DNA from: Eubacteriales bacterium | GTDB taxonomy: Bacteria; Bacillota; Clostridia; Oscillospirales; CAG-272 | DNA: 46,342 nt | Direction: 5' to 3' | NCBI GenBank assembly: GCA_045602205.1 | Contig: JAZSBF010000084.1 | Span: 1 to 46,342 of the forward strand | Shown: piece after piece, positions 1 to 26,181 of the stretch | Numbering within the stretch: the stretch's first letter is position 1 | How the letters are laid out: the number at the start of each line of letters is the position of its first letter | Position numbers and translations under genes: made by a program | Notes under the pieces: model-generated | The model's database searches: none | The model's input: only the letters and a program-made list of their open reading frames with translations | Told to the model about the DNA's origin: nothing

Positions 1-1247
1 CCGTACTTGTCAAACATTCTCCACATTGCGGGGATTCTCTTCATAATAGTTCCCTCTCCGCCGATCTTCTCTATCATAGGAGTATCAAGCCATACAGCAA
101 AGCCCTCGTCTGTCTCTACGCCGTTTCCTCTTGTCGAGCACTCGCGAATGATAGATGCCGCAGATACGTCTCTTGTCTCAAGAGGATGCATAAATGCCTC
201 GCCGTTTACGTTTATAAGCTTAGCACCGAGCGAACGGACCTTCTCTGTAACGAGAGCGCCGAATATCTGCTCGGGGTATGCCGCACCCGTGGGGTGATAC
301 TGAAGTGTTTCAGCATAAAGAAGCTTTGCTCCTGCACGGTAACCGAGAACCAATCCGTCAGCGGTAGCTCCGTAGTGGTTAGATGTCGGGAAGCCCTGAT
401 AGTGCATACGTCCTGCGCCGCCTGTTGCGATTATGACTGTCTTTGCTCTTGCAACGAGAAGCTCCTTGGTCTCCATGTTCAAAAGAACAGCTCCTGCCGC
501 GTTGCCGTTTTCGTCAAGAATAAGCTCGATAGCCGATGTGAAATCAACAACAGGGATCTCGCGGTTGAGAACCTCGTCACGGAGAGTTCTCATTATCTCA
601 GCTCCCGAATAGTCCTTTGCGGCGTGCATACGCTTGCGGGAAGTTCCGCCGCCGTGAGTTGTTACCATTGTGCCGTTTTCGTCCTTGTCGAACTCAACGC
701 CAAGGTTGCTGAGCCACTGAATAGCCTCGGGAGCGTCGCAAACGAGCTTGGAGAGAAGCTCTCTCTTTGCCGCGAAGTGTCCGCCGCCGAAAGCGTCAAC
801 GAAGTGGATAGCGGGCGAGTCGTTGGGCTTATCAGCAGCCTGAATTCCACCCTCAGCCATCATTGTGTTAGCATCTCCCATACGAAGCTTTGTAACGATC
901 ATTACGTTAGCGCCTGCCTCGTGAGCCTCAATAGCAGCAGAAGTACCTGCTCCGCCGCCGCCGATTATAAGAACGTCAACGTCGTAGTCGGGTGTTGTGA
1001 GATCAACGTCAGCCGCAGTGATTCTGCTGTGAGCCTGAAGTATTTCAGCAAGCTCTGTGGGAACTTTGTCTCCCTTGTTAGGACCGATCTCAAGAACTGC
1101 AAATTCGTCCTGCTTGTAGTCGGGGTGGTAAGCCGCAAGAAGATCTTCCTTCTGCTGTGCTGTCATACGCGCGGGTTCAAGCGCGATATTCTTCTCTCTT
1201 GCCGCCTCAACAGCCGCAAGAGATTTTTGGAATTTCTCTGAATACAT
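1..1247 (-). CDS. Soluble fumarate reductase/succinate dehydrogenase-type flavoprotein subunit (FrdA/SdhA/TfrA-like); 3' end runs off the window
   Basis: Missing from the ORF track; translated by hand from ATG at 1247 (RBS GAGGGG): MYSEKFQKSL...DVLIIGGGGAG...DANTMMAEGGIQ...HGGTSRKRMHAAKDYSGAEI...QYHPTG...LVTEKVRSLG...LETRDV. It has the FAD Rossmann motif and FrdA-type catalytic His, Thr/Glu and Arg motifs. Confidence 0.88.
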   Translation of the reverse strand, partial: MYSEKFQKSLAAVEAAREKNIALEPARMTAQQKEDLLAAYHPDYKQDEFAVLEIGPNKGDKVPTELAEILQAHSRITAADVDLTTPDYDVDVLIIGGGGAGTSAAIEAHEAGANVMIVTKLRMGDANTMMAEGGIQAADKPNDSPAIHFVDAFGGGHFAAKRELLSKLVCDAPEAIQWLSNLGVEFDKDENGTMVTTHGGGTSRKRMHAAKDYSGAEIMRTLRDEVLNREIPVVDFTSAIELILDENGNAAGAVLLNMETKELLVARAKTVIIATGGAGRMHYQGFPTSNHYGATADGLVLGYRAGAKLLYAETLQYHPTGAAYPEQIFGALVTEKVRSLGAKLINVNGEAFMHPLETRDVSAASIIRECSTRGNGVETDEGFAVWLDTPMIEKIGGEGTIMKRIPAMWRMFDKY

Positions 1248-1261
1248 TCTTCTTCCCCTCC

Positions 1262-1936
1262 TTATTTCTCTATCTCACGAGTATTGTAGAGTTCCTTGAG
1301 CTCTTCAACGGGTTTCTGCATAAGAGCCTCTATAAGCTCGTTGAAATCACCGTTCTTGATCTCTTTTACTCTGTCCTCAAGGTGTCCGCATCCGGGAGCA
1401 AGATACTTACCGTTTATTCTACGAGCAAGCATTGCGACCTGAGGATGAGAGATTCCCGCAGGGCATCTGGAAGAACAAACTCCGCACATTACGCAGTCAA
1501 AGGATTCCTCAGCGCACTTTTCAAAGTCGCCTCTCTGAGCGTATGCTATGTACTGCATAACGTTAAGTCCCTGAGTACATGCCTTTGTGCAGGCGTTACA
1601 GCCAACACACGCGTATATCTCGGGATAAAGCTGCATCATAACAGCCTCATTTGTCTTTACTGTTTCAATATCGTAAACCTGCTTAACAAGCGGGAAGAAG
1701 GGCAAAGTAGCGATATACATATTATCCTCTACCTTTGTCTGACATGCAAGGCACGCCTTAAGCTCCTTGTCTCCCTTTATACGATAGATAGTAGCGCAAG
1801 CGCCGCAAAATCCGTTACGGCAGCCGCATCCTCTTACGAGCTGGTAGCCTGCATACTCCATAGCATTCATTATAGTCAGGTTATCCGGCACTGTATACTT
1901 TTTTCCAAAAAGGAAAATATTTACCATATTAGCCAT
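1262..1936 (-). CDS. FrdB/SdhB-like iron-sulfur subunit ([2Fe-2S] plus two [4Fe-4S])
   Basis: GCRNGFCGAC...LACQ [2Fe-2S] motif; CVGCNACTKAC and CVMCGVCSSRCP [4Fe-4S] motifs; lies directly upstream of the flavoprotein gene. Confidence 0.85.
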   Translation of the reverse strand: MANMVNIFLFGKKYTVPDNLTIMNAMEYAGYQLVRGCGCRNGFCGACATIYRIKGDKELKACLACQTKVEDNMYIATLPFFPLVKQVYDIETVKTNEAVMMQLYPEIYACVGCNACTKACTQGLNVMQYIAYAQRGDFEKCAEESFDCVMCGVCSSRCPAGISHPQVAMLARRINGKYLAPGCGHLEDRVKEIKNGDFNELIEALMQKPVEELKELYNTREIEK

Positions 1937-1954
1937 ATCAATCCTCCACCTTTA

Positions 1955-2788
1955 TTAATATTCATCCGGCAACTCGTCCAGCTCATCCAAACGGAAGACA
2001 GGACCGTCTTTGCAAACATATTTTGAACCAACGTTACATCTTCCGCACTTGCCCACTCCGCACTTCATTCGAAGCTCAAGTGTTGTGTATACCTGAGTCT
2101 TCTCAAATCCGAGAGAGGTAAGTCCGTCAAGCGTGAACTTTATCATTATGGGAGGTCCGCAAAGGACTGCCATCTTATCGGTATCAAAGCCAAGCTCCTT
2201 TACGTAGTTAGGAACAAAACCAACGTGTCCGTCCCAACCCTCTTGCTCACGGTCGATCGTAAGATGAACGTGAACGTTTTCATCGTTGCACCACTCGTCG
2301 ATGATCTCCTTGTAATCAAGCAGGTCATCCTTGCTGCGAGAACCGTAAACGATGTCTATCTTTCCGTAGCGGTCACGGTAGTGACGGCAGTAATTTATTA
2401 CCGAACGGAGAGGCGCAAGACCGACACCGCCCGCAATAAAGAGCATATTCTTTCCCGCAAAAACGTCGTCAACGGGGAAAGGATTGCCGTAAGGACCTCT
2501 GATGGTTATCTGCTGTCCTACCTCTGCCTGATGAAGCCACTCGGTAACGCATCCGCACTTCTTGATAGAAAACTCCATATACTCGGTATTTGTGGGAGAC
2601 GACGTTATAGAGAACATCGCTTCGCCTACACCGGGGATAGAGAGCATAGCGCACTGACCGGGACGATGATCAAAAGCCTTTTTGCCGTCGGGGGTGACTA
2701 CTCTGAAGGTCTTGATATCAGGTGTATCGATACGAACATCGGTAATAACTCCAAGCTTAGGTATCAGTGTTTCTTCTCTGTTATTCAT
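1955..2788 (-). CDS. flxA: FlxA-like FAD/NAD(P)-binding oxidoreductase (PyrK/AsrB/HydG family)
   Basis: RGPYGN, IAGGVGLAP, CGPPIM and C-terminal MKCGVGKCGRC...CKDGPVF [2Fe-2S] motif; start at ATG 2788 after GGAGG, overlapping the upstream stop. Confidence 0.88.
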   Translation of the reverse strand: MNNREETLIPKLGVITDVRIDTPDIKTFRVVTPDGKKAFDHRPGQCAMLSIPGVGEAMFSITSSPTNTEYMEFSIKKCGCVTEWLHQAEVGQQITIRGPYGNPFPVDDVFAGKNMLFIAGGVGLAPLRSVINYCRHYRDRYGKIDIVYGSRSKDDLLDYKEIIDEWCNDENVHVHLTIDREQEGWDGHVGFVPNYVKELGFDTDKMAVLCGPPIMIKFTLDGLTSLGFEKTQVYTTLELRMKCGVGKCGRCNVGSKYVCKDGPVFRLDELDELPDEY

Positions 2789-3809
2789 TTTCCTTACCTC
2801 CAAGCTTTTTCATAACCTTTACGATATTCATTGATATCGGACATCTGGAAAGACAGCGTCCGCAACCTACACAGCTGAACATTCCGTCGTTATTCTCGGG
2901 ATAGTATACGAGCTTGTGCATAAATCTCTGACGAAATCTCTCCTTCTGAGAATTTCTGTTGTTTCCGTGAGCCATTCTTGTGAATTCTGAATACATACAG
3001 GAGTCCCAGCAACGGAAACGTACAACACCGTTACCCGTGTCGAAGTCCTTTATGTCGTAGCACTGACACGTGGGGCACACGAAGGTACAAGTTCCGCAAC
3101 CGAGACAAGCCTCGGAAAGCTCTGCCCACTCGGGAGCGTCGAAGTATTCCTTTGTCTTGCCGCCGCCAAAAGCGTCTGTGGAAAGGTCGGCAAGAGGAAG
3201 TCGCTTCATTATTACTTTGGTCTTTTCCTTCTGAGCCTCAACAGCCTCGCTACCGCACTCTTCGGTAAGTCCCTCAAGCTTCTTCATAAGAGCCTCACCC
3301 TTTTCGGTGTTGCTCTGCCAGAATATCTCGTTCTCTGTTTTCCAGATCGATATGTCGCCGGCAGGCTCTGTCGCGTCTATTCCAAAAGCTCCGCAGAAGC
3401 AGGTCTCGGAGGGTCTTGAACAAGCAAGGGACACGATAACGCCGTGCTCGCGTCTTGAAGCGTAGAAGCTGTCAACGGGCTCTGCGAGGAACACTCTGTC
3501 AAGCACGTCAAAGCTCTTTACGTCGCACGCGCGAACTCCGAAGACTACAAAATCTTCAGCCTCGTTGCGCACGTCAACTATTTCTATATTCTTACCCGAG
3601 GTCTTGAATTCCATAAGGTCTTCTGTCTGGGGGAAGAAAAAGTCCTTGGGGCTTCTCACTGTATTGAGCGCATCGCTCCATACCGCGCCTTCTGCCCACT
3701 CTGTATACTTAGCCTTGCCGCTCGCATCGGTGGTGGGAAGATAAAGCTTTGCCTCTTTTGCTATCTCGGCAAATATTTGGTTAATTGATGAAATCGAAGA
3801 TTTACGCAT
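2781..3809 (-). CDS. flxB: FlxB-like 4Fe-4S dicluster protein (AsrA/HydB family)
   Basis: SPKDFFFP, GVRACD, CLGCGTCTFVCPTCQC, RCWDSC, RFRQRFMHK, CVGCGRCLSRCP; start trimmed to ATG 3809 (GGGGGG RBS). Confidence 0.85.
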   Translation of the reverse strand: MRKSSISSINQIFAEIAKEAKLYLPTTDASGKAKYTEWAEGAVWSDALNTVRSPKDFFFPQTEDLMEFKTSGKNIEIVDVRNEAEDFVVFGVRACDVKSFDVLDRVFLAEPVDSFYASRREHGVIVSLACSRPSETCFCGAFGIDATEPAGDISIWKTENEIFWQSNTEKGEALMKKLEGLTEECGSEAVEAQKEKTKVIMKRLPLADLSTDAFGGGKTKEYFDAPEWAELSEACLGCGTCTFVCPTCQCYDIKDFDTGNGVVRFRCWDSCMYSEFTRMAHGNNRNSQKERFRQRFMHKLVYYPENNDGMFSCVGCGRCLSRCPISMNIVKVMKKLGGKENE

Positions 3810-4800
3810 TTGCATCCCCCCTGTCAAAAACTTCACCGGGTTCGAGATCCTCGGTAGTATAATCAACAAGCGGCGCTCTTGAGCCTACCTCAGCACCTGC
3901 CTGATAGTCGCCGTAAAATTCGTTTATATCCTTTATAAACTTACGGTTGAGCAAGTGAAGCGGTATGTTCTGAGGACATACGCGAGAGCACTCTCCGCAG
4001 TCGGTACAACGGCCTGCAACGTGGAAAGCGCGAATGATGTGGAACATCTTCTCCTCAAAGCTGTTTGAGGCTGCCTTGTTTTCAACTCCCGAATCAGGAT
4101 TGTTGAAAACGCACTTTTCGCAGGTACAAGCGGGACATACGTCGCGGCAAGCATTGCAACGAATGCAACGGGAAAGCTCGTTCTGCCAGAAAGCAAATCT
4201 TTCGTCGGGAGTCATAGCCTCAAGCTTTGCGACCTCGTCAAAGCGCGCAGAATCGATGATCTCTCCGTCCTCGCCCATAAGCTCGTCGTAAGCGACGTGC
4301 TTGCGGCTCTTGCAGTTTACACAACGCTCAAGAAGAACATCCTCAAGAGCTACCTTGACAGGCGCATCCTCATAAATAGTCTGCACCGCGATCTTCTCTC
4401 CTGTACAATCAATAGAGGAAATACCCTCACCGCAAACTGCTTTTACCTTTTCTATATCAGCCATTCCCTCGCAGGGGATCCCCACAGCATAAACCTTTTC
4501 GCGATCGAAGCGGTGCTCTGTGAGAAGCTGATTGAAGCTGTATGTATCGCAGGGCTTGAGGAATACAAGCACCTTGCCCTCACGCTTCTTTGTTTTTGCT
4601 ATAAGATATTTTGAGAAGTTTGCGCCGCAGAAATCGTTCCATACAAATTCCTTGCGAAGCGCCTCCTCGCTCTCAAATACCGCGGGAGTGATATCATAAT
4701 CAAATTCTCCCTTTTTCCAACCGAGCACACACTCTACTGCGCCCTCGGAAAGCAGAGAAACTGCTTTGTCAATTATCTGTTCACGGCTTATTTTTTGCAT
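3802..4800 (-). CDS. flxC: FlxC-like 4Fe-4S protein (FrhB/FdhB-related)
   Basis: LKPCD, CIRCNACRDVCPACTCEKC, FHVAGRCTDCGECSRVCP; lies between flxD and flxB. Confidence 0.85.
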   Translation of the reverse strand: MQKISREQIIDKAVSLLSEGAVECVLGWKKGEFDYDITPAVFESEEALRKEFVWNDFCGANFSKYLIAKTKKREGKVLVFLKPCDTYSFNQLLTEHRFDREKVYAVGIPCEGMADIEKVKAVCGEGISSIDCTGEKIAVQTIYEDAPVKVALEDVLLERCVNCKSRKHVAYDELMGEDGEIIDSARFDEVAKLEAMTPDERFAFWQNELSRCIRCNACRDVCPACTCEKCVFNNPDSGVENKAASNSFEEKMFHIIRAFHVAGRCTDCGECSRVCPQNIPLHLLNRKFIKDINEFYGDYQAGAEVGSRAPLVDYTTEDLEPGEVFDRGDANA

Positions 4801-5222
4801 CGCAGATCCTCCAATCTCTTATTTTCGCCAAGAGCTGCAACCTTTTCGGCGAAATCGTTCATTGTAGCGGCAAACTTTGCTCCCTCTGCCGCGGATACCC
4901 ACTCAACGCGGGTACGTTCTCTCTCTATTCCAAGGTAGTCAAGCATAGAGAACAGGAGCGCCATACGGCGACGGGTATAATAGTTACCCGATGTATAGTG
5001 ACAGTCACCGGGGTGACAGCCACAGATTATAACTCCGTCAGCGCCGCGCTGGAAAGCGCGGAGCACGAACATGGGGTTAACTCTGCACGAGCAGGGTACG
5101 CGGATTATTTTTACGTCCGCGGGATAGTTAAGTCTGTTGTTACCCGCAAGGTCTGCGCCCGCATAGGAACACCAGTTACAGCAAAATGCCACGATAAGGG
5201 GCTTATATTCTTTTACTTGCAT
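4788..5222 (-). CDS. flxD: FlxD/MvhD [2Fe-2S] subunit
   Basis: IVAFCCNWCSYAGADLAG, RVPCSCRV, GCHPGDCHY, WVSAAEG are the MvhD family signature. Confidence 0.93.
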   Translation of the reverse strand: MQVKEYKPLIVAFCCNWCSYAGADLAGNNRLNYPADVKIIRVPCSCRVNPMFVLRAFQRGADGVIICGCHPGDCHYTSGNYYTRRRMALLFSMLDYLGIERERTRVEWVSAAEGAKFAATMNDFAEKVAALGENKRLEDLRCKK

Positions 5223-7207
5223 ATTGCGTCAACCTCCGCCATTATCTGTTTGCTTGAGAAGCCCTGAAGATCCATAGCTCCCGAAGGACATGCCACAGTA
5301 CAAGCTCCGCAACCCTGACATACCGCGGGATTTACCTTTGCGACACGTCTGATTGCCGTTGTTCTGTCGGGCATACGGAATTCCTTATCCTCGTAAGTGA
5401 TAGCGCCGTAAGGACATACTCTCTCACAAGTAGAGCATCCGTTACACATAAGCTCATCGGATTTAGCTACGCAGGGGTTACCCATAAGCTTATCCTTTGC
5501 GAGAAGTCCGATAACCTTGGATGCCGCAGCTCCTGCCTGAGAAACTGTTTCGGGGATATCCTTAGGTCCTTGGCAAGCTCCCGAGAGGAATACGCCTGCC
5601 GTGGGGCTTTCTACGGGACGAAGCTTGGGATGCGCTTCTGTGAAGAAATCGTTGGTATCCATACTTGCGGTAAGCATAGTAGCAAGAGGTCTTGCCGACT
5701 TATCGGGCTCGATAGCCGCCGCGAGAACCACAAGATCGGCATCGATATGAAGCTGCTTGTTTGAAAGCAGATCGGATGCCTGAACCTTGAGCTTGTCGCC
5801 CTCGGGAGAAACCTTTCCTACCATGCCCTTTATGTAGTGAACGCCGTATTCTTCAACCGCGCGTCTGTAAAACTCGTCAAAGTTCTTACCGGGTGTTCTG
5901 ACATCTATGTAGAATACGTAAACGTCTGTATCCGGATATTTATCTCTTGTAAGCATCGCATGCTTTGCTGTATACATACAACAGATCTTGGAGCAATACT
6001 CCTTGCCCTTTTCAGCGCACGCGCTGCAACGAGAGCCTACACACTGAACGAATACGATAGTGTGGGGGTGCTTTCCGTCGGAGGGACGGAGAAGCTTTCC
6101 TGCCGTAGGTCCTGCCGCGTTTGTAAGTCTCTCGAATTCAAGAGACGTGATAACGTCCTTGGACTGATTGTAAGCGAACTCATCAAACTTATCCATGCTT
6201 ATAGGATTAAATCCTGTCGCGACTACGATAGCGCCGTACTTTTCTTCGATAAACTCATCCTTCTGTGTATAATCGATAGCTCCTGCCGCGCATATCTTTG
6301 AGCAGAGTCCGCACTTGCCCTTCTGGAGCATCGTGCAGGCGCTGGGGTCGATAGTAGCAACCTTCGGAACTGCCTGTGCAAAAGGAATATAAACTGCGTG
6401 GCGGTTGTCCATACCGAGATTGAACTCGTTGGGAACTTTCTTCTGCGGACACTTTTCAACACAAGCGCCACAACCCGTACAAAGCTCTTCCTTTACATAA
6501 CGAGCTTTTTTCTTTATCTTAACGTCGAAGTTACCGACGAATCCCTTTACACTCTCAACTTCACTGTAAGAGAATATCCTGATCTTGTCATTCTGCGCAA
6601 CGTCAACCATCTTAGGTGTGAGGATACAAGCCGCACAGTCAAGAGTCGGGAATGTTTTGTCAAGCTGAGCCATCTTTCCGCCGATAGTAGGCTTTTTCTC
6701 TACGATATCAATAGGGAAACCTGCGTCAGCAATATCAAGCGCTGTCTGAATACCCGCAATACCGCCGCCGATAACGAGCGCGCGCTTGGTTACGGGAGAC
6801 TCACCGGGGGTGAGGGGTGTATTGAGATTTACCTTCGCAACTGCCGCTTTACCGAGTATTATTGCCTTTTCGGTCCCGGTCATCATGTCCTTATGTACCC
6901 AAGAACACTGCTCACGAATGTTTGCGATCTCAACCATATAAGGATTGAGTCCCGCAGCCGCCGCGGTCTTACGGAAGGTAGCCTCGTGCATACGGGGAGA
7001 ACAAGAACAAACAACAACACCTGTAAGCTTATGCTCTGCCACAGCATTTTTGATTATATCCTGTCCTGCCTGAGAACACATATACTGATAATCTGTGGAA
7101 AAGACTACGCCGGGCTCAAGCTTGAGTGCCTCGGCAACTGCGTGAACGTCCACAGTACCTGCGATATTACTACCGCACCAACATACAAAAACGCCTATTC
7201 TCTGCAT
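5213..7207 (-). CDS. hdrA: Heterodisulfide reductase subunit A (bifurcating FAD/Fe-S subunit)
   Basis: RIGVFVCWCGSNI, CSPRMHEATF, NIREQCSW, VIGGGIAG, LDKTFPTLDC, VQCVGSR, YCSKICCM, GACQGPKDIP and ferredoxin motifs. Confidence 0.96.
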   Translation of the reverse strand: MQRIGVFVCWCGSNIAGTVDVHAVAEALKLEPGVVFSTDYQYMCSQAGQDIIKNAVAEHKLTGVVVCSCSPRMHEATFRKTAAAAGLNPYMVEIANIREQCSWVHKDMMTGTEKAIILGKAAVAKVNLNTPLTPGESPVTKRALVIGGGIAGIQTALDIADAGFPIDIVEKKPTIGGKMAQLDKTFPTLDCAACILTPKMVDVAQNDKIRIFSYSEVESVKGFVGNFDVKIKKKARYVKEELCTGCGACVEKCPQKKVPNEFNLGMDNRHAVYIPFAQAVPKVATIDPSACTMLQKGKCGLCSKICAAGAIDYTQKDEFIEEKYGAIVVATGFNPISMDKFDEFAYNQSKDVITSLEFERLTNAAGPTAGKLLRPSDGKHPHTIVFVQCVGSRCSACAEKGKEYCSKICCMYTAKHAMLTRDKYPDTDVYVFYIDVRTPGKNFDEFYRRAVEEYGVHYIKGMVGKVSPEGDKLKVQASDLLSNKQLHIDADLVVLAAAIEPDKSARPLATMLTASMDTNDFFTEAHPKLRPVESPTAGVFLSGACQGPKDIPETVSQAGAAASKVIGLLAKDKLMGNPCVAKSDELMCNGCSTCERVCPYGAITYEDKEFRMPDRTTAIRRVAKVNPAVCQGCGACTVACPSGAMDLQGFSSKQIMAEVDAICK

Positions 7208-7221
7208 CTGTCTTTTCCTCC

Positions 7222-7614
7222 TTATTTACTGTATTTTCTGAACGCGCTGACGATAAGCTGCTGAGGTGTCTCGTCATCGAGATACGCAGGAACGTCATTC
7301 TTAGTCATATGGTTTGCGCCCTGCTTACGTACAGCGGCAAGGCGAACCGCTTCAACCAGCTTTGCGGGCTCAACGCCTCTGGGACATCTGTCAACACAAG
7401 CAAAGCAGGTCAGACATCTGTAAAGCGACTTAGAACCCAGCAACGGCTCAACATCTCCGCTCTCTACCATACTTACAAACTGATGCGGATGATACTCCAT
7501 CTCATCATATGCGGGGCAGGTAGCCGAGCATTTTCCGCATTTCATACACTTTTTGGGATTAACTCCGCTCATACGCAAGAGTTCTTCCTGAAGATACTCA
7601 TTCTTCTTATCCAT
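7222..7614 (-). CDS. hdrC: Heterodisulfide reductase subunit C
   Basis: CMKCGKCSATCP and CLTCFACVDRCPRG motifs; lies between hdrB and hdrA. Confidence 0.93.
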   Translation of the reverse strand: MDKKNEYLQEELLRMSGVNPKKCMKCGKCSATCPAYDEMEYHPHQFVSMVESGDVEPLLGSKSLYRCLTCFACVDRCPRGVEPAKLVEAVRLAAVRKQGANHMTKNDVPAYLDDETPQQLIVSAFRKYSK

Positions 7615-8398
7615 TTGTATCCTCCTTTACTCCAAGCGCCTCTGCAAGCAGCTCTGTGAAATATACAACAGGTATATCCGAACCGCTCTTTATGAGGTTG
7701 TATTTGCAAAGCGGGCATGCGGTAATTATCATCTCTGCACCTGCCGCCTTTGCGTTCTTGATAACCGAGTGGCTCTTCTTAGCCGCAAACTCGGGAGCTT
7801 CCATCGAAACGTATCCGCCGCAGCACTCATTTCTGTTTGCGTAAACAACGGGATCAGCGCCGATAGCTCTGATAAGATCCTCGATAATGGTGGGGTTTTC
7901 GGGATCATCCATCTTCATTACCGCGTTAGGTCTGAGAAGCAAGCAGCCGTAATAAGCAGCTATCTTCTTGCCCTTAAGCGGATTTACCACCTTTTCTTTT
8001 ACAGTGTCAAAGCCAACGAGGTCTCTGAGCATCTCAAGATAATGATATACCTCAGTCTCACCCGCGTAGGCCTCTTCGTCTGACATATAATTGTTCACCT
8101 TGCTTGCGAACTCAGCGTCGTTCTGCATAGCGTGATTTGTCTGCTTTATTACGTTGTGACAAGCTGAGCAAACGCTTACGAGCGGCTGTTCTGCCGCCTT
8201 TGCAGCCTTGAGCGCGCGGACCGACGAAAGCTTGGTCGCAACCTCGTCCTTTGCTGTGGTGAACACACCGCCGCAGCACTGCCAATCTTCTATCTCTTCC
8301 AGAGTTACGCCGAGAACCTCAGCGGATCTGCGAGCGTATGCATCAAGATCCTTAGCCTTGTTTTTCAGCGTACATCCGGGGAAATAACTAACCTTCAT
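7607..8398 (-). CDS. hdrB: Heterodisulfide reductase subunit B (two CCG domains)
   Basis: YFPGC...WQCCGG...CSAC and YYGCLL...ECCGG...CPLC; start at ATG 8398 after GGAGG. Confidence 0.93.
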   Translation of the reverse strand: MKVSYFPGCTLKNKAKDLDAYARRSAEVLGVTLEEIEDWQCCGGVFTTAKDEVATKLSSVRALKAAKAAEQPLVSVCSACHNVIKQTNHAMQNDAEFASKVNNYMSDEEAYAGETEVYHYLEMLRDLVGFDTVKEKVVNPLKGKKIAAYYGCLLLRPNAVMKMDDPENPTIIEDLIRAIGADPVVYANRNECCGGYVSMEAPEFAAKKSHSVIKNAKAAGAEMIITACPLCKYNLIKSGSDIPVVYFTELLAEALGVKEDTNG

Positions 8399-8412
8399 TT
8401 CTTTACCTCCGA

Positions 8413-9789
8413 TCATACCATTTGTTCGGGATGGAACACCTCATCAAACTTTTCTGCGGTGAGGAAGCCGAGTTCTACACACGCTTCTTTAAGCGAGATG
8501 TTGTCCTTAAATGCCTTTTTAGCTGTCTTTGCCGCATTTTCATAGCCTATGTAAGGATTGAGCGCCGTAACGAGCATAAGAGAGTTGTGCAAATTATGAT
8601 GCATCTTTTCCTTATTAGCCTTGATTCCTACCGCGCAGTTCTTGTTGAAGGAAACTATCGCCTCAGCAAGAAGACGGACAGACTGCAGGAAGTTATATGC
8701 GCATACAGGCATAAATACGTTAAGCTCAAAGTTACCCTGAGAAGCAGCCATACCGACAGCAACATCGTTACCCATTACCTGAACGGCAACCATTGTAACA
8801 GCCTCGCACTGTGTGGGATTTACCTTGCCGGGCATGATAGACGAGCCGGGCTCGTTCTCGGGAATAAATATCTCTCCAAGACCGTCGCGGGGACCCGAAG
8901 CAAGCCAACGGATATCGTTTGCTATCTTCATCATATCGCAAGCAAGAGCCTTTACAGCACCGTGCGCGAAAACGATCTCATCCTTAGATGTGAGGGAGTG
9001 GAACTTGTTAGCGGCGGTAACGAAAGGCTTACCTGTAAGCGCGCCTATCTCTGCCGCAACCTTTTCAGCGAATCCCTTGGGAGCGTTAAGTCCTGTTCCA
9101 ACAGCAGTTCCGCCCAGAGCAAGCTCGTAAAGAGGCTCGAGCGAACGCTCTATAAGCTCAACGTCTCTCTCAAGGCTTGTTCTCCAGCCGCTTATCTCCT
9201 GACTGAACTTTATAGGAGTAGCATCCTGAAGATGCGTTCTTCCGCTCTTAACGATTCCCTCATTCTCCGCCTCAAGTCTGACAAATGTAGCTATAAGCTC
9301 CTTGACTGCGGGGATAAGCTTATCTGTAAGACTAAGAACAGCAGCTATGTGCATTGCCGTGGGGAATGTATCGTTAGATGACTGGCTCATATTTACATCA
9401 TCATTGGGATGAAGCTTCTTTTCACCGAGTATCTGATTTCCTCTGTTAGCAATTACCTCGTTCGAATTCATATTTGACTGTGTTCCCGAACCTGTCTGCC
9501 ATACTACAAGCGGAAAATGATCGTTAAGCTTGCCTGCGATGACCTCGTCGCACGCCTGCTTTATAGCGTTCATCTTTTCCTCTGTCATCTTCTCGGGACG
9601 CAGAGCGTTGTTGGCGATAGATGCCGCTTTTTTAAGTATTCCAAAAGCATGTACTATCTCTGCGGGCATTGTCTCAATTCCAACACCGATCTCAAAATTT
9701 TCATGGCTTCTCTGAGTCTGCGCAGCCCAAAGACGATCCGCGGGAACTTTTACTTCTCCCATTGAGTCATGTTCAATACGGTATTCCAT
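8413..9789 (-). CDS. fumC: Class II fumarate hydratase
   Basis: [43 protein letters not shown]. Confidence 0.95.
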
Positions 9790-9836
9790 AATATCATCCT
9801 TTCAACTGAAATAAAATTTATCCTTATTATATTCTA

Positions 9837-10778
9837 TCAAAGCTCAATGCTCTTGATTACGTTCTTGAGGCTCTCTGCGCTTGCGTGAAGGTCGGCAAGC
9901 TCCTTCTCGTTAAGACGAAGGAATACTTTTCCGTGAGCGCCCTTTGTTCCTACTACATTGAGAAGACTGAGACACACATCGTCTATGCCATACTCTCCGT
10001 GAAGCATCGTGGAAACCGTAAGTGTCGTATCCATAGAGCCAAGCAAGCACTTGCAGAGGTGGCAAACAGACATCGATACGGCGTAGAAGGTAGCGCCCTT
10101 ACGCTGAATAACTCTCGCGCCCGACTTGCGAACATACTCCTCAACGTCACTCTTGTCGAGTTCGGGATATACACCCTGATTGGAGATAGAATCTCTGAAA
10201 TCCTGAACAGGAACGTTGGAGATATTTGCTACCGACCACGGAACGAATGCCGAATCTCCGTGCTCGCCGAGAACGTACGCGTGCACGTTATGCTGGCTTA
10301 CCGAATAATATTCAGAAAGTCTGGAACGGAGACGAGCTGTGTCAAGTATAGTTCCCGAACCGATTATTCTCTCCTCGGGAATATCTGTATATTTACAGAA
10401 TGCATAAGTAAGAATATCAACAGGGTTACTTACGATAACGTATGTAGCATCTGGGGCATACTTTGTTATCTGAGAAGCGACCGACTTGAGAATATTTACA
10501 TTTGTCTGAGCAAGATCAAGTCTTGACTGACCCGCTTTTCTTGCAACTCCCGAGGTGATAACTACGATGTTTGATCCAACCGCATCAGAGTAATTTCCCG
10601 CATAGATATTGCAAGGGTTGCAGAAGGGAGTTCCCTGTCTGATATCGAGTGCCTCGCCTATTGCCTTTTCGCCGTTAATGTCGATCATAACGATCTCGGA
10701 AGCAATTCCCGATGTAGTGAGCGTGTACGCTATGGTAGAACCTACGCTACCCGTTCCGATTACTGTGATTTTGTTCAT
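9837..10778 (-). CDS. mdh: LDH-like malate dehydrogenase
   Basis: LDH/MDH fold (GTGSVG, VSNPVD, LDTARL, GEHGDS). The substrate loop GVARKAGQSRLDL has Arg at the specificity position (Gln in LDH), and the gene is co-operonic with fumC. Confidence 0.8.
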   Translation of the reverse strand: MNKITVIGTGSVGSTIAYTLTTSGIASEIVMIDINGEKAIGEALDIRQGTPFCNPCNIYAGNYSDAVGSNIVVITSGVARKAGQSRLDLAQTNVNILKSVASQITKYAPDATYVIVSNPVDILTYAFCKYTDIPEERIIGSGTILDTARLRSRLSEYYSVSQHNVHAYVLGEHGDSAFVPWSVANISNVPVQDFRDSISNQGVYPELDKSDVEEYVRKSGARVIQRKGATFYAVSMSVCHLCKCLLGSMDTTLTVSTMLHGEYGIDDVCLSLLNVVGTKGAHGKVFLRLNEKELADLHASAESLKNVIKSIEL

Positions 10779-10870: not shown

Positions 10871-10933
10871 TCGTTATTATTTTAACACATACAACAAACT
10901 TTGTCAACAGCTATATTGGCAAAAGCTTAACAA
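10871..10933. promoter_or_regulatory. Two putative Rex (NADH/NAD+ sensor) operators
   Basis: TTGGCAA-AAGC-TTAACAA (10916-10933, 2 mismatches) and TCGTTAT-TATT-TTAACAC (10871-10888, 3 mismatches, over the -10), compared with the clostridial consensus TTGTTAA-N4-TTAACAA. Confidence 0.55.
10879..10907 (-). promoter_or_regulatory. Sigma-A promoter of the mdh-fumC-hdr-flx-frd operon
   Basis: TTGACA (10907-10902), 17 bp spacer, TAAAAT (10884-10879) with extended TG. A second TATAAT at 10870-10865 has TTGTAT 18 bp upstream. Confidence 0.7.
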
Positions 10934-10983: not shown

Positions 10984-11020
10984 AAAAAACAGCCGATTCG
11001 TCACCGAACAGGCTGTTTTC
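10984..11020 (-). terminator. Intrinsic terminator after thrS
   Basis: AAAACAGCC...GGCTGTTTT inverted repeat with a U-tract on the minus strand. Confidence 0.8.
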
Positions 11021-11034
11021 TTCAATAATTAATT

Positions 11035-12972
11035 TTATCTTACCTTATCCTTGATCTGCTGTTCTGCGAAAGCGATAAAGTCGGACGCGGACATAACTCC
11101 CATATCTCCGTCCTTGCGAGAACGTACCGAAACAGTTCCCTCGTTCATTTCCTTTTCGCCTATAACTATCATACAAGGTATCTTTTCAAGCTGTGCTGCG
11201 CGTATCTTGTATCCTATCTTCTCGTTTCTCTCGTCAACAGTCACTCTCATTCCCTTTGCGATACACTCGTCCGCAAGCTTGTGAGCATACTCAGCCTGCT
11301 CGTCTCCGATAGGCATAAATCTTATCTGCTCGGGCGCCATCCACATCGGCAAAGCCCCCGCGTATTTTTCAAGCAAGAGCGCGAGCGTACGCTCGTAACA
11401 GCCGAGAGAGGTACGGTGAATGATATAAGGAGTTACGCGGTTATCATTGGAATCGGTATATTCCATACCGAACTTCTTCGCAAGAAGCATATCTATCTGA
11501 ATAGTAACTATCGTGTCCTCTTTTCCGAATACGTTCTTGCACTGAATGTCGAGCTTAGGTCCGTAGAACGCCGCCTCGTCTATACCTATGGCATAATTGC
11601 CCTTACCAAGATAATTGTCGAGAAGCTCGCCCATAATACCCTGAGCCTCATCCCACTGTTCGGGAGTACCCTCGTATTTATCTGTTCTCTTAGGATCCCA
11701 CTGTGAAAATCTGAAGGAGCAATCCTCCCAAAGTCCGACGGTCTCAAGACAGTTCTTTGCAAGCTCGAGACAGCCCTTGAATTCCTCTGCAAGCTGGTCG
11801 GGACGAAGAACGAGATGTCCCTCGGAAATAGTAAACTGACGGACTCTGATAAGGCCGTGCATTTCTCCGCTGTCTTCGTTACGGAAGAGAGTGGAGGTCT
11901 CGCCGAGTCTCATTGGAAGATCTCTGTACGAGCGCTTCTTGTTGAGAAAGACCTGATACTGGAAAGGGCAGGTCATGGGGCGGAGCGCAAAGCACTCCTT
12001 CGTATAGTCGTCGGGATCGCCCATCACGAACATACCGTCAAGATAATGATCCCAGTGTCCCGATATCTTATAGAGCTCTCTCTTTGCCATAAGCGGAGTC
12101 TTTGTGAGAAGATATCCTCTCTTCTGCTCCTCGTCCTCGACCCATCTCTGAAGAGTTTGGATAACTCTTGCGCCCTTGGGAAGAAGGATAGGCAATCCCT
12201 GTCCGATAGAATCTACCGTCGTGAAATACTCAAGTTCGCGACCTATCTTGTTATGGTCGCGCTTTCTTGCCTCCTCGACAGCCTCAAGGTAAGCCTTGAG
12301 CTGATCCTTGGTCGGATACGCGATGCCGTATATTCTCTGAAGCATCTTGTTCTTCTGGTCGCCCTTCCAATAAGCTCCCGTACACTGTGTAAGCTTGAGC
12401 GCTTTGACCGCTCCCGTTGCAAAGAGGTGAGGTCCTGCGCAAAGGTCGGTGAACTCTCCCTGACGGTAAAAGCTTATTACCGCATCCTCGGGAAGCTCCT
12501 CGATAAGCTGTACCTTATAAGGCTCGTCCTTCTCTGTCATAAGAGCCATAGCCTCCTCGCGAGGAAGCTCAAAGCGCTCTATACGCAAATTCTCCTTAAC
12601 TATCTTCTTCATCTCATCCTCTATCTTCGAGAGTATCTCGGGGGTAAAGGAGACGTCGCTGTCAATATCGTAATAAAATCCGTTTTCGATAGCAGGTCCT
12701 ATGGTAAGCTTAGCTTCGGGATAAAGACGTTTTACCGCCTGAGCGAGAATATGCGACGCGGTATGGCGGAATACGTGCTTTCCACCTTCGCTCTCGAAGG
12801 TCAGAAGCTTCACTTCGCTTCCGTTCGAAGGTACAGCGGTAAGCGCGCAAAGCTCTCCGCCTATCTCAGCCGCAATAACACTGCGGTCAATAACACCGGC
12901 CTCAGCCGCAGCGTCGTAAACGCTGACTCCGTCTTTAGCCTCTACTGTCTTGTCATTAAAGATGATCTTCAT
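11035..12972 (-). CDS. thrS: Threonyl-tRNA synthetase
   Basis: FRHTASHILAQAV, DLCAGPH, RDHNKIG, LRPMTCP, HGLIRVRQFT, AAFYGPKLD, IHRTSLG. Confidence 0.97.
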   Translation of the reverse strand: MKIIFNDKTVEAKDGVSVYDAAAEAGVIDRSVIAAEIGGELCALTAVPSNGSEVKLLTFESEGGKHVFRHTASHILAQAVKRLYPEAKLTIGPAIENGFYYDIDSDVSFTPEILSKIEDEMKKIVKENLRIERFELPREEAMALMTEKDEPYKVQLIEELPEDAVISFYRQGEFTDLCAGPHLFATGAVKALKLTQCTGAYWKGDQKNKMLQRIYGIAYPTKDQLKAYLEAVEEARKRDHNKIGRELEYFTTVDSIGQGLPILLPKGARVIQTLQRWVEDEEQKRGYLLTKTPLMAKRELYKISGHWDHYLDGMFVMGDPDDYTKECFALRPMTCPFQYQVFLNKKRSYRDLPMRLGETSTLFRNEDSGEMHGLIRVRQFTISEGHLVLRPDQLAEEFKGCLELAKNCLETVGLWEDCSFRFSQWDPKRTDKYEGTPEQWDEAQGIMGELLDNYLGKGNYAIGIDEAAFYGPKLDIQCKNVFGKEDTIVTIQIDMLLAKKFGMEYTDSNDNRVTPYIIHRTSLGCYERTLALLLEKYAGALPMWMAPEQIRFMPIGDEQAEYAHKLADECIAKGMRVTVDERNEKIGYKIRAAQLEKIPCMIVIGEKEMNEGTVSVRSRKDGDMGVMSASDFIAFAEQQIKDKVR

Positions 12973-13195: not shown

Positions 13196-13624
13196 TTATT
13201 TCTTTTTGGATCTATTATACTCCGAATGAGGATTTACTATCTCTCTCCAGTCAAGATCTCCTCTTTCAAGTGCGGTGATTATGACCTCAGCTGTCGCAAT
13301 ATTGGTAGCAACCGGAACATTGTAAAGGTCGCACATTCTGAGGAGCTCGTACTCAGCGGGGTTGAATTTAGCATCGGGACGCGTGTCTCTGAAATAGAGC
13401 AATACGTCTATCTCGTTATACGCAACTCTTGAGGCTATCTGTTCTTCACCGCCCTGCTCTCCCGACATAAGTCTGTTTATATCAAGCCCTGTTGCTTCGG
13501 ATATATATTTTCCGGTAACGGCGGTAGCACAAATGTTATGCTTATTAAGTATTCCACAATACGCAATACAAAACTGTGCCATCAACTCTTTTTTTACATC
13601 GTGCGCAATTATAGCAATTTCCAT
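13196..13624 (-). CDS. mgsA: Methylglyoxal synthase family protein with altered catalytic motifs
   Basis: IAIIAHDVKK, ATAVTG, SGEQGGEEQI, FRD, CDLYNVPVATNIATAE. Confidence 0.85.
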   Translation of the reverse strand: MEIAIIAHDVKKELMAQFCIAYCGILNKHNICATAVTGKYISEATGLDINRLMSGEQGGEEQIASRVAYNEIDVLLYFRDTRPDAKFNPAEYELLRMCDLYNVPVATNIATAEVIITALERGDLDWREIVNPHSEYNRSKKK

Positions 13625-13711: not shown

Positions 13712-13835
13712 TACGATAGCGAATATTTATGTAAAATAACCAAGAATATTTTTGTTTTTCCTCTTGTTTTTTGAGTGTCAGTGTTCTATAATATTATCAG
13801 TAGGAAAAATTCAAAAAACGGAGGTATATAAAAAA

Positions 13836-15080
13836 ATGGTAAAAAGATCCATTGAGACCGTTGCGCTTACAGATCCCGAGGTAGCGGCGGTTATTCAGAG
13901 TGAGCTCGACCGTCAGAGAGACGGACTTGAGCTTATCGCTTCAGAAAATATAGTATCCGAGGCAGTGCTCTTCGCTATGGGCTCTGTTCTCACAAATAAA
14001 TATGCAGAGGGTTATCCCGCAAAGCGTTACTATGGAGGCTGTCAGTGTGTCGACGTCGTTGAAAATATAGCGATCGAGAGAGCTAAAAAGCTTTTCAACG
14101 CAGCCTATGCTAACGTTCAGCCCCACAGCGGCGCTCAGGCAAACACAGCTGTTTACTTCGCGCTTCTCAATCCCGGAGACACTGTTATGGGAATGAGCCT
14201 CGCTCACGGAGGTCACCTCACCCACGGAAGTCCCGTAAACATTTCGGGTATGTATTATAATTTTGTCCCCTACGAGTTGAACGCGGAGACAGAGCGCATT
14301 GATTACGACGAGTTTGAAAAGCTCGCTCGCGAACATAAGCCGAAGCTTATCGTAGCAGGCGCTTCCGCATATCCCCGTATCATTGATTTCGAGAGAATGG
14401 CAAATGTAGCGCACTCGGTCGGCGCATATTTTATGGTCGATATGGCGCATATCGCAGGTCTTGTTGCCGCAGGCGAGCACCCCTCTCCCATGCCCTACGC
14501 AGATGTTGTTACAACAACGACTCATAAGACGCTCAGAGGTCCTCGCGGAGGTATGATCCTCACCAACGACGAGGAACTCGCAAAGAAATTCAACAAGGCT
14601 ATTTTCCCCGGAACACAGGGCGGACCTCTTATGCACACGATCGCCGCTAAGGCCGTTTGCTTTGGCGAGGCGCTCAAGCCCGAGTTCAAGGCATATCAGC
14701 ACAATATTGTTGAGAACGCAAGAGTTCTCGCAGACTCCCTACTCGCAGAAGGATTCGATCTCGTTTCGGGCGGAACAGACAACCACCTTATGCTCGTTGA
14801 CCTCAGACCTATGAAGATCACAGGCAAGGAGTTTGAGGCAAGACTTGATGCCGTTCATATCACGGTCAATAAGAACGCTATCCCCAACGACCCCGAAAAG
14901 CCCTTCGTTACCTCGGGCGTCCGCGTAGGAACTCCCGCTGTCACCTCAAGAGGTCTCGGGACAGACGATATGAAGACCATCGCAAACCTCTTCAAGCTCA
15001 CAGCTACCGACTTTGAGAACAGCGCAGAGTCCGTAAGAGCTACCGTTGCGGAGATCTGCAAAAAATATCCGCTTTACTGA
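13836..15080 (+). CDS. glyA: Serine hydroxymethyltransferase
   Basis: [44 protein letters not shown]; start ATG 13836 after GGAGG; TTGTTT-17-TATAAT promoter at 13764-13792. Confidence 0.97.
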
Positions 15081-26025: not shown

Positions 26026-26143
26026 AACATCGTGAGGGAGTAGTAACACGTAAGTGTGATAAGTCAACATCCTGACCGCAAGGTCTGGCTTATCTTAATA
26101 TACGAGACTCATGTACGCCTTAAGTACATGAGTCTCGTTTTTT
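26026..26143 (+). ncRNA. yybP-ykoY (Mn2+) riboswitch with overlapping terminator
   Basis: GAGGGAGTAG, GTCAACAT, CTGGC and GAGAC motifs. The P1 3' strand (CTCAT) overlaps the terminator CGAGACTCATGTAC...GTACATGAGTCTCG-TTTTTT. It sits upstream of a P-type IIA ATPase, a known context for this riboswitch. Confidence 0.88.
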
Positions 26144-26181
26144 ATCACAAAAAACATACGCAAAACGCAGAAAGGAAGCTT

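Follow-up and report, generated by a model that had tools for sequence, protein, structure and literature searches.

The window analysed here, the first 46,342 bases of contig C84 (JAZSBF010000084.1) of a Eubacteriales bacterium, begins with an operon that very probably encodes the conversion of oxaloacetate to succinate without quinones, with electrons supplied through a Flx-Hdr electron transfer module. Eleven open reading frames (ORFs) occupy positions 1-10778. All are on the minus strand, transcribed from high to low coordinates, in the order mdh, fumC, hdrBCA, flxDCBA, frdB, and frdA. The best explanation of this gene set is a scheme in which electrons from NADH are divided between fumarate and ferredoxin by flavin-based bifurcation, and confidence in that scheme as a whole is a little better than even. 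The genome (G000) is a 1.43-Mb assembly of 101 contigs with 83% completeness. Genes were named by Pfam and NCBIfam profile searches of the ORFs, and some of the products were also compared with PDB entries.

The gene map bears out the arrangement that an earlier note had read from this DNA, namely eleven co-oriented genes with many overlaps between stop and start codons. Neighbouring genes overlap at six of the ten junctions (by 4, 8, 10, 13, up to 68, and 23 nt) and are separated at the remaining four by gaps of 14-47 nt, with longest-ORF starts used for all. After mdh comes fumC (9789-8413), a class II fumarate hydratase gene with 720.8 bits to TIGR00979 (cut-off 664.75); its score against the aspA model, 457 bits, is under the cut-off of 681.2. 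It is followed by hdrB (8416-7607), whose product has two CCG motifs, by hdrC (7614-7222), encoding a protein with two 4Fe-4S clusters, and by hdrA (7207-5213), encoding a subunit of 664 amino acids (aa) with flavin adenine dinucleotide (FAD) and Fe-S clusters that reaches 781 bits to the HdrA2 model. The flx genes are flxD (5222-4788), of the MvhD/FlpD type (PF02662, 187 bits), flxC (4800-3802), for a 4Fe-4S protein, flxB (3869-2781), for an AsrA/HydB-like Fe-S protein, and flxA (2803-1955). The start codon of flxB is uncertain, and its longest ORF overlaps flxC by 68 nt. FlxA is AsrB/HydG-like with predicted binding of NAD(P)H and FAD, and it matches PF00175 (NAD_binding_1), PF00970 (FAD_binding_6), and PF10418 (DHODB 2Fe-2S). 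The last two genes are frdB-like (1936-1262), for an Fe-S subunit of 224 aa, and frdA-like (1247-3), which has the first 415 of about 532 codons of a flavoprotein gene and is cut by the contig start. The locus is predicted to be a single transcription unit, read from a promoter-like site that precedes mdh by about 100 nt.

The gene order is conserved in relatives. At least 589 stretches encoding a relative of FrdA came out of a scan of species-representative genomes, and the best 80 of them (82-93% identity) are called close loci here. All 80 are in metagenome-assembled genomes (MAGs) of gut, rumen, or faecal Clostridia (Congzhengia, Ructibacterium, Parachristensenella, 'Oscillospiraceae', and similar). 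The genes hdrB, hdrC, hdrA, flxD, flxC, flxB, flxA, and frdB are colinear with frdA in all 53 close loci that have a full 10-kb upstream flank; 50 of these loci also include fumC, and 46 include mdh. All 75 close loci whose upstream flank reaches 700 nt or more have frdB beside frdA. When the whole phylum was sampled evenly, an FrdB-like protein turned up in 42 genomes out of 401, representing 32 of 278 genera. Synteny was counted at 40 of the 42 sites outside G000 that have FrdB; G380 and G268 were left out. The two frd genes are adjacent in all 40 of these loci, hdrB and hdrC are near them in 20, and a complete hdrBCA-flxDCBA set is found in eight (seven loci were extended first). Three gene orders occur among those eight, with the set before frdBA, before frdBA with hdrC and hdrB swapped, or after frdBA.

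Ten of the 40 loci (L129 and L136-L144) belong to one family with a different layout, hdrC-hdrB-hdrA, an HdrA-like protein with Pyr_redox_2 and Fer4 domains, flxD, a flxC-like gene, and then frdBA. The intervening protein was annotated in L129 only, where it has about 1057 aa with Pyr_redox_2 and several 4Fe-4S domains; in the other loci it is deduced from an equal spacing of about 3.5 kb. flxA and flxB are absent from these loci. Such loci may supply the same Hdr-Frd core with electrons from NAD(P)H through a different module.

FrdA has the active-site residues expected for work on C4-dicarboxylates. It retains the residues aligned with H232, E245, R248, H355, and R390 of E. coli FrdA and with R286 of SdhA. 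These dicarboxylate-site positions are invariant in 44 aligned sequences, as is an Asn that stands opposite the His used for covalent FAD attachment; the Asn is found in 118 of 120 FrdA matches. Six near-duplicates of one family (L137, L139-L143) among the 50 full-length sequences were left out of the alignment, and L124 was skipped, its match starting at residue 82. The only domain of a full-length relative (93% identity across the part in common) is FAD_binding_2, at residues 91-472, and the C-terminal domain PF02910 was found neither in this relative nor in G000. An N-terminal extension of 87 aa is conserved, with R17, H41, P42, D43, and G55 invariant. The predicted structure of FrdA, extension included, is of high confidence (pLDDT 88 overall), and the nearest solved fold is FrdA of the E. 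coli quinol:fumarate reductase (QFR), 1kf6_A (Foldseek E 7.5e-35, TM 0.71).

The FrdB-like protein has one 2Fe-2S motif (Cys 39, 44, 47, 65) and two CxxCxxCxxxC motifs (Cys 110-120 and 148-158), and all twelve of these Cys are invariant. Its score against the SdhB/FrdB model TIGR00384 is 30.8 bits, under the cut-off of 88, and the best SdhB match in PDB, where it has no close solved relative, is at E 6e-5. Domain annotation finds no NAD(P)H-binding or thiol-oxidising domain in FrdB or FrdA, and FrdBA therefore needs an Fe-S donor. The only electron donor for it that the operon encodes is Flx-Hdr. A natural fusion of the two subunits was also found in P0055, a protein of 727 aa with FrdB-like sequence at residues 2-219 and FAD_binding_2 at 293-674.

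The family assignment of FrdA bears on its substrate. Its best NCBIfam family is the methanogen TfrA (NF004900), with 343 bits in the full-length relative and a cut-off of 718 that is not reached. The NadB model TIGR00551 is close behind with 266 bits, below its cut-off of 452.75, and the SdhA/FrdA models are also behind TfrA. The nearness of NadB, and the lack of the covalent-FAD His, which is missing in NadB and in soluble reductases too, would fit an FrdA with a substrate other than fumarate, such as an L-aspartate oxidase or a different enoate reductase, with the C4 genes as neighbours for a different reason. This explanation is highly improbable, because FrdA is always paired with its Fe-S subunit in the close loci and the phylum sample, all of the dicarboxylate-site residues are invariant, and the nadB cut-off is not reached. 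The context is also one of C4 metabolism, with fumarase and malate dehydrogenase here and malic enzyme, pyruvate carboxylase, or fumarase-sized ORFs elsewhere.

The Flx-Hdr module has the seven subunit types of FlxABCD-HdrABC, and modelling places FrdB against it. HdrA is homologous over its full length to HdrA in the structure of methanogen HdrABC-MvhAGD, 5odc_A (679 bits, E 4.5e-203, residues 3-661 to 5-648). This is a structurally characterised bifurcating HdrA, and the homology supports the proposal that the operon's HdrA is a subunit of the bifurcating type. HdrB has ten invariant Cys (15, 47, 48, 83, 86, 158, 198, 199, 234, 237), and both of its CCG motifs are intact. The TfrB model is covered in consecutive parts by FrdB (positions 19-148), HdrC (125-220), and HdrB (260-487). 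HdrB is almost as good a match to SdhE, the CCG-type subunit of methylmenaquinol:fumarate reductase (1.1e-44), as to the HdrB models (1.6e-45), and this provides a precedent for a CCG protein next to an SdhB-like protein.

The earlier note had suggested modelling the Frd and Hdr subunits together. A model of HdrB, HdrC, and FrdB gives a score of 0.87, while the best of three controls gives 0.00, and it sets FrdB against HdrB and HdrC. In calibration, 58 of 80 solved complexes attained this score, as did 2 of 110 mismatched pairs; these counts hold only roughly here, the model having been made with custom alignments and three chains, unlike the calibration. All contacts (100%) are shared among the three runs, with a pLDDT of 73 or more for the partner. 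At the modelled interface FrdB residues 108-114, with Cys110 and Cys113, face HdrB residues 15 and 44-47, in the region of the first CCG motif. FrdB also touches the C-terminal tail of HdrC (105-129), leaving the cluster-binding core of HdrC untouched. Over the full modelled interface, FrdB takes part with residues 96-114, 125-137, and 159-160, and HdrB with residues 15-19, 44-47, and 60-64. The model supports docking of FrdB on HdrB/HdrC.

The same proteins could be read in the methanogen manner, with Flx-Hdr reducing a disulfide carrier and a TfrAB-like unit of HdrB/C and FrdBA re-oxidising the thiols. The best family of FrdA is TfrA, FrdB, HdrC, and HdrB together cover TfrB, and the intact CCG motifs of HdrB would serve such chemistry. 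Thiol-mediated coupling is nevertheless quite improbable. The operon has a single HdrB/HdrC pair, and tblastn of G000 found no second HdrB, so that one site would need to carry out both disulfide reduction and thiol oxidation. The TfrA cut-off of 718 bits is not reached, and the model puts the FrdB cluster directly at the CCG site of HdrB. The carrier protein DsrC (PF04358) was found in none of four genomes, three of them complete, with a thin control that was positive in just 1 of 14.

The end of frdA and the genes beyond it were traced in relatives and in other contigs. frdA is truncated by the contig start, so the operon is not complete within the window, and the description of it as complete was overstated; the exporter gene is on contig C36 and a phosphoenolpyruvate (PEP) carboxykinase gene is on C33. 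FrdA has 415 aa in the window and 530-545 aa in 50 full-length relatives. The lost C-terminus was not found in the own genome by a PF02910 search or by tblastn with a full-length relative. In relatives a permease of the AAE family (420 aa, PF06826) begins about 17 nt after frdA, and it stands directly after frdA in 50 of the 72 close loci with enough downstream DNA. The own genome has an AAE permease, 83% identical, on C36, which starts 11 nt from the contig end in an orientation that fits a continuation of C84. From this position and orientation the unit is predicted to have twelve genes, with about 360 nt unassembled between C84 and C36, a gap expected to contain the final ~117 codons of frdA. 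Directly after the permease gene on C36 is an ORF of 144 aa (C36:16524-16958) without an NCBIfam match at E 1e-10 or better.

A window that ends inside frdA could hide anchor genes beyond the contig edge, and the enzyme would then be a membrane-bound quinol:fumarate reductase. The earlier note had stated that no FrdCD or cytochrome b anchor lies by frdA. This cannot be judged from the window, but the relatives bear it out: their frdA ends at about 532 aa, and the next gene encodes the AAE transporter in the proportion given above and never an anchor in the loci examined. In the own genome C36 ends 11 nt before the transporter gene in matching orientation. Genome searches covered G000 together with G074, G380, and G306, three relatives that have the operon and whose genomes are complete. 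Anchors of the Sdh_cyt family (PF01127) were found in 0 of the 4 genomes, and the UbiA/MenA family (PF01040) also in 0 of the 4, with a control of 14 of 14. These results agree with the proposed lack of a membrane anchor and of a menaquinone route. The absences rest on the complete relatives, since absences in G000, at 83% completeness, are weak. PF02910 is absent from G000, and FrdB is below the SdhB cut-off. A membrane-anchored QFR is contradicted by the loci of relatives and by the genome searches; it was rejected and is scarcely credible.

The genomes have outlets for reduced ferredoxin, as would be required by the soluble, bifurcating route. RnfD is found in three of the four genomes, and in G000 RnfC (446 bits) is encoded beside RnfD, while [FeFe] hydrogenase, a further ferredoxin sink, is found in all four. 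The check for Rnf thus came out in favour of the proposal. The PEP carboxykinase of G000 on C33 is of the GTP type. In G074 (L151) a PEP carboxykinase of the ATP type is encoded at G074:C21:191488-192897, directly after the AAE permease, and this genome has the entire path from PEP to exported succinate in one gene row.

The proposed mechanism begins with a malate dehydrogenase of the lactate dehydrogenase clade and class II fumarase, which would make fumarate from oxaloacetate. FlxA would oxidise NADH, and the electrons would pass through FlxB, FlxC, and FlxD to the flavin of HdrA, where the pair would be split. One path would lead through HdrC, HdrB, and FrdB to the non-covalent FAD of FrdA and on to fumarate, and the other would reduce ferredoxin by flavin-based bifurcation. 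The overall reaction would be 2 NADH + fumarate + Fd(ox) -> 2 NAD+ + succinate + Fd(red). The potentials are about +30 mV for fumarate/succinate, about -320 mV for NAD, and about -400 to -500 mV for ferredoxin, and with these values the overall reaction is exergonic. Reduced ferredoxin would be re-oxidised by Rnf, with formation of an ion gradient, or by [FeFe] hydrogenases, and succinate would leave the cell through the AAE-family transporter encoded just after frdA. Neither a quinone nor a membrane anchor would be involved. There is an even chance that FlxABCD-HdrABC-FrdBA is one soluble eleven-subunit NADH:fumarate/ferredoxin oxidoreductase and a new class of bifurcating enzyme, in which the non-cubane CCG clusters of HdrB pass electrons straight to a 4Fe-4S cluster of FrdB and no disulfide is reduced.

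A simpler possibility is a linear NADH:fumarate oxidoreductase, in which Flx-Hdr is a mere wire to FrdBA and ferredoxin is not reduced. Reduction of fumarate by NADH is strongly exergonic by itself, and the phylum sample suggests that simpler donors suffice elsewhere. Two of the 40 FrdBA loci have hdrC-hdrB only, and 20 have no Hdr gene in the stretch covered. The linear scheme is still rather unlikely. A full-length HdrA with all of the domains of the bifurcating enzyme is kept together with FlxD in all 53 close loci with a full flank, and it is unparsimonious to suppose that a flavoprotein of 664 aa is retained as a mere wire. The ferredoxin sinks Rnf and hydrogenase are present as well.

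The loci without a full Hdr set show that FrdBA in general does not need the full Flx-Hdr module. With FrdBA found both with and without Hdr, it appears to be a modular soluble C4-dicarboxylate reductase for which Flx-Hdr is one recurrent partner and not the sole one. In the annotated loci without Hdr, the genes beside frdBA encode malic enzyme, pyruvate carboxylase, CoA-transferase, fumarase-sized ORFs, or other Fe-S and FMN-binding proteins. Two such loci, L122 (5758-9374) and L133 (7068-9908), have small Fe-S proteins and a protein with FMN_bind and 4Fe-4S domains beside frdB, along with two ORFs (190 and 536 aa) without a Pfam match. The Fe-S and FMN_bind neighbours may be other donor modules.

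Several further points, together with the loci that lack Hdr, weigh against the bifurcating scheme. NADH as the donor and the coupling to ferredoxin reduction are deduced from protein sequences, and for bifurcation the evidence is the homology of HdrA. The three-chain model is only roughly calibrated, and the FrdB site on HdrB/HdrC may coincide with the site that HdrA needs. The own FrdA is incomplete, and its C-terminal third, with the equivalents of H355 and R390, is seen only in relatives of 82-93% identity. The limited completeness of G000 has been mentioned; in addition, G306 has the full operon, and RnfD was not found in it. A biochemical assay of any Flx-Hdr-FrdBA member was not found in the literature searched, which left most subscription journals outside, and this agrees with the earlier statement that no full biochemical proof of a bifurcating fumarate reductase is known. 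A literature search for Congzhengia and succinate returned nothing on fumarate reductase.

The first gene, mdh (10778-9837), encodes an NAD-dependent dehydrogenase of the L-lactate dehydrogenase (LDH) clade and is probably a malate dehydrogenase (MDH). Profiles taken at face value point to lactate. The product passes two NCBIfam cut-offs for L-LDH (341.9 against 339 and 330.3 against 303.55) and is below those for MDH (NF004863, 277.5 against 283; TIGR01763, 215 against 351.85). Among the best 60 of its 92 PDB matches, all were deposited as L-LDH save one entry named MGS-M5. The active-site loop gives the opposite indication. The sequence GVARKAGQSR aligns with G(A/V)xQKPGETR of four LDH chains from three proteins (4m1q, 3pqd, 3pqe, 1a5z), and an Arg stands where those four chains have Gln, at the Gln102 position; 1y6j also has Arg. 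By the Gln102Arg rule for LDH, this Arg predicts a specificity for oxaloacetate. Arg is present in 47 of 48 readable matches to mdh orthologues, and the lone Gln is in a distant locus of 39% identity. The name mdh is therefore probable, though the profile scores favour LDH. Going by the NCBIfam cut-offs, an annotator would call the operon copy an L-lactate dehydrogenase, and genes of this sort probably carry wrong names in annotations. G000 has a second gene of the LDH clade (C98:20458-21396), 54% identical to the operon copy and likewise with Arg at this position. A contrast between LDH and MDH paralogues within G000 was looked for, and there is none, as both LDH-clade copies have Arg.

Upstream of mdh, on the minus strand, are a putative boundary, a promoter-like site, and a regulatory lead. 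The stop codon of thrS (TAA, 11037-11035) precedes a hairpin with arms ACAGCC/GGCTGT and then TTTTTT (10984..11016), which would form the upstream boundary of the unit. The hairpin was read by eye and is absent from the output of the terminator scan, whose loop limit is 8 nt; the scan found 14 sites where shuffled sequences have a mean of 12.9, which is no excess. Among promoter-like sites in the region, the top one (10879..10907; TTGACA-17-TAAAAT, extended by TG) has 11 of 12 matches and is about 100 nt before the mdh ATG. A palindrome resembling the operator of Rex, TTGTTAAGCTTTTGCCAA (10916..10933), is 8 nt upstream of the -35 box and has two mismatches to the Rex consensus. By the same consensus a second Rex-operator-like palindrome is at 10871-10888, and the two flank the promoter-like site. 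Rex-like sites with at least 12 of 14 matches to the consensus are found in 13 of 46 mdh upstream regions and in 6 of 920 mononucleotide shuffles. The N-terminal domain of Rex is encoded in G000 and G380 and was not found in G074 or G306. Control of the operon by Rex is a lead and not a finding. An Rfam scan of the whole window gave 0 matches at gathering scores, and no T-box was detected.

The rest of the window has genes of a housekeeping kind. Upstream of the operon are thrS (11035-12972, minus strand) and genes for methylglyoxal synthase (13196-13624, minus strand) and serine hydroxymethyltransferase (13752-15080, plus strand). Farther on are genes for a leucine-rich-repeat adhesin-like protein (16744-18750, a weak match), a pump resembling P-type Ca2+-ATPases (26056-28827), FtsK (28887-31619), and AlaS (33753-36395).

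Succinate is a key intermediate in the gut and rumen, a precursor of propionate, and a signal to the host. Textbooks assign its formation to fumarate reductases that sit in the membrane and depend on quinones. The operon described here, like its many relatives, instead suggests a route that is cytoplasmic and free of quinones and that would conserve energy by way of ferredoxin and Rnf. If the scheme is correct, fumarate would be the high-potential acceptor of a bifurcation, and with Rnf the outcome would be a quinone-free 'fumarate respiration'. FrdBA is found in about a tenth of the sampled genomes of the phylum and is linked to Hdr in half of the loci (20 of 40), so this could be a major and overlooked way in which Clostridia of the gut and rumen form succinate and conserve energy.

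The operon resembles several known systems in part. The FlxABCD-HdrABC complex of Desulfovibrio vulgaris was reportedly described by Ramos et al. in 2015, with DsrC as the proposed acceptor. The same seven types of protein are present in the operon, with an NADH-binding FlxA, Fe-S proteins FlxB and FlxC, an MvhD-like FlxD, and HdrA, HdrB, and HdrC with two CCG motifs. Every sequence-level feature of Flx-Hdr membership was found here, save the DsrC acceptor. The operon differs in its gene order, hdrBCA-flxDCBA, in the lack of DsrC in the four genomes searched, and in having fumarate reductase in the same operon.

The methanogen system of TfrAB with HdrABC-MvhAGD is alike in that FrdA has TfrA as its best match, the domain order of TfrB equals FrdB, HdrC, and HdrB in succession, and fumarate is the final sink of an Hdr-based bifurcation. 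In contrast to TfrAB, the parts are split into separate subunits here, the TfrA and TfrB cut-offs are not reached, and the donor would be NADH through Flx and not H2 through Mvh. A thiol shuttle of coenzyme M and coenzyme B would not be expected in a bacterium. Clusters for the reductive tricarboxylic acid (rTCA) cycle in tubeworm symbionts have tfrAB interspersed with flxABCD-hdrABC, and direct electron delivery from Flx-Hdr to an enzyme resembling thiol:fumarate reductase was hypothesised for them in the part of the report drawn on here (PMC6315080). Those organisms are Gammaproteobacteria with an autotrophic rTCA cycle and korABCD, and not with a fermentative succinate operon (PMC6315080, same part).

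E. coli FrdABCD shares the fold of the flavoprotein (1kf6_A) and the catalytic residues with the FrdA described here. Unlike the E. coli enzyme, this FrdA has no covalent-FAD His and no PF02910 domain and carries the 87-aa N-terminal extension, and FrdB has two full 4-Cys motifs and is below the SdhB cut-off. There are no FrdC or FrdD genes, and no quinone synthesis was found in the genomes searched.

The closest precedent is the 'succinate operon' of Pseudoclostridium thermosuccinogenes (CDQ83_RS03365-RS03315), which the earlier note had named and which is real. According to the sections of the published account used here, it has genes for fumarate hydratase, seven Flx-Hdr proteins, two fumarate reductase proteins (CDQ83_RS03320/25), and a hypothetical protein that is a possible succinate exporter (PMC7282089). 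In the same sections the operon is co-regulated, a coupling of succinate formation with the reduction of ferredoxin is proposed, and a GTP-type PEP carboxykinase carboxylates PEP; the system is called unique, with citation of a 2019 preprint by Koendjbiharie and van Kranenburg (PMC7282089). The two operons are alike in the order of fumarase, Flx-Hdr, fumarate reductase, and transporter, in the proposed ferredoxin coupling, and in the GTP-type PEP carboxykinase. They differ in the mdh gene that is added in front here, as in 46 of 53 close loci, the comparison being one of described gene order. P. thermosuccinogenes is a thermophile, and the host here is a small-genome gut or rumen Clostridia MAG. 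The same gene order has been published for P. thermosuccinogenes and no biochemical demonstration was found, so the locus is a further case of a layout that has been proposed in print and is biochemically unproven. Relative to what those parts of PMC7282089 and PMC6315080 describe, the new elements are the wide occurrence in gut and rumen Clostridia, the inclusion of mdh and the exporter in the unit, the three gene orders, the modular FrdBA, and the modelled contact of FrdB with HdrB/HdrC.

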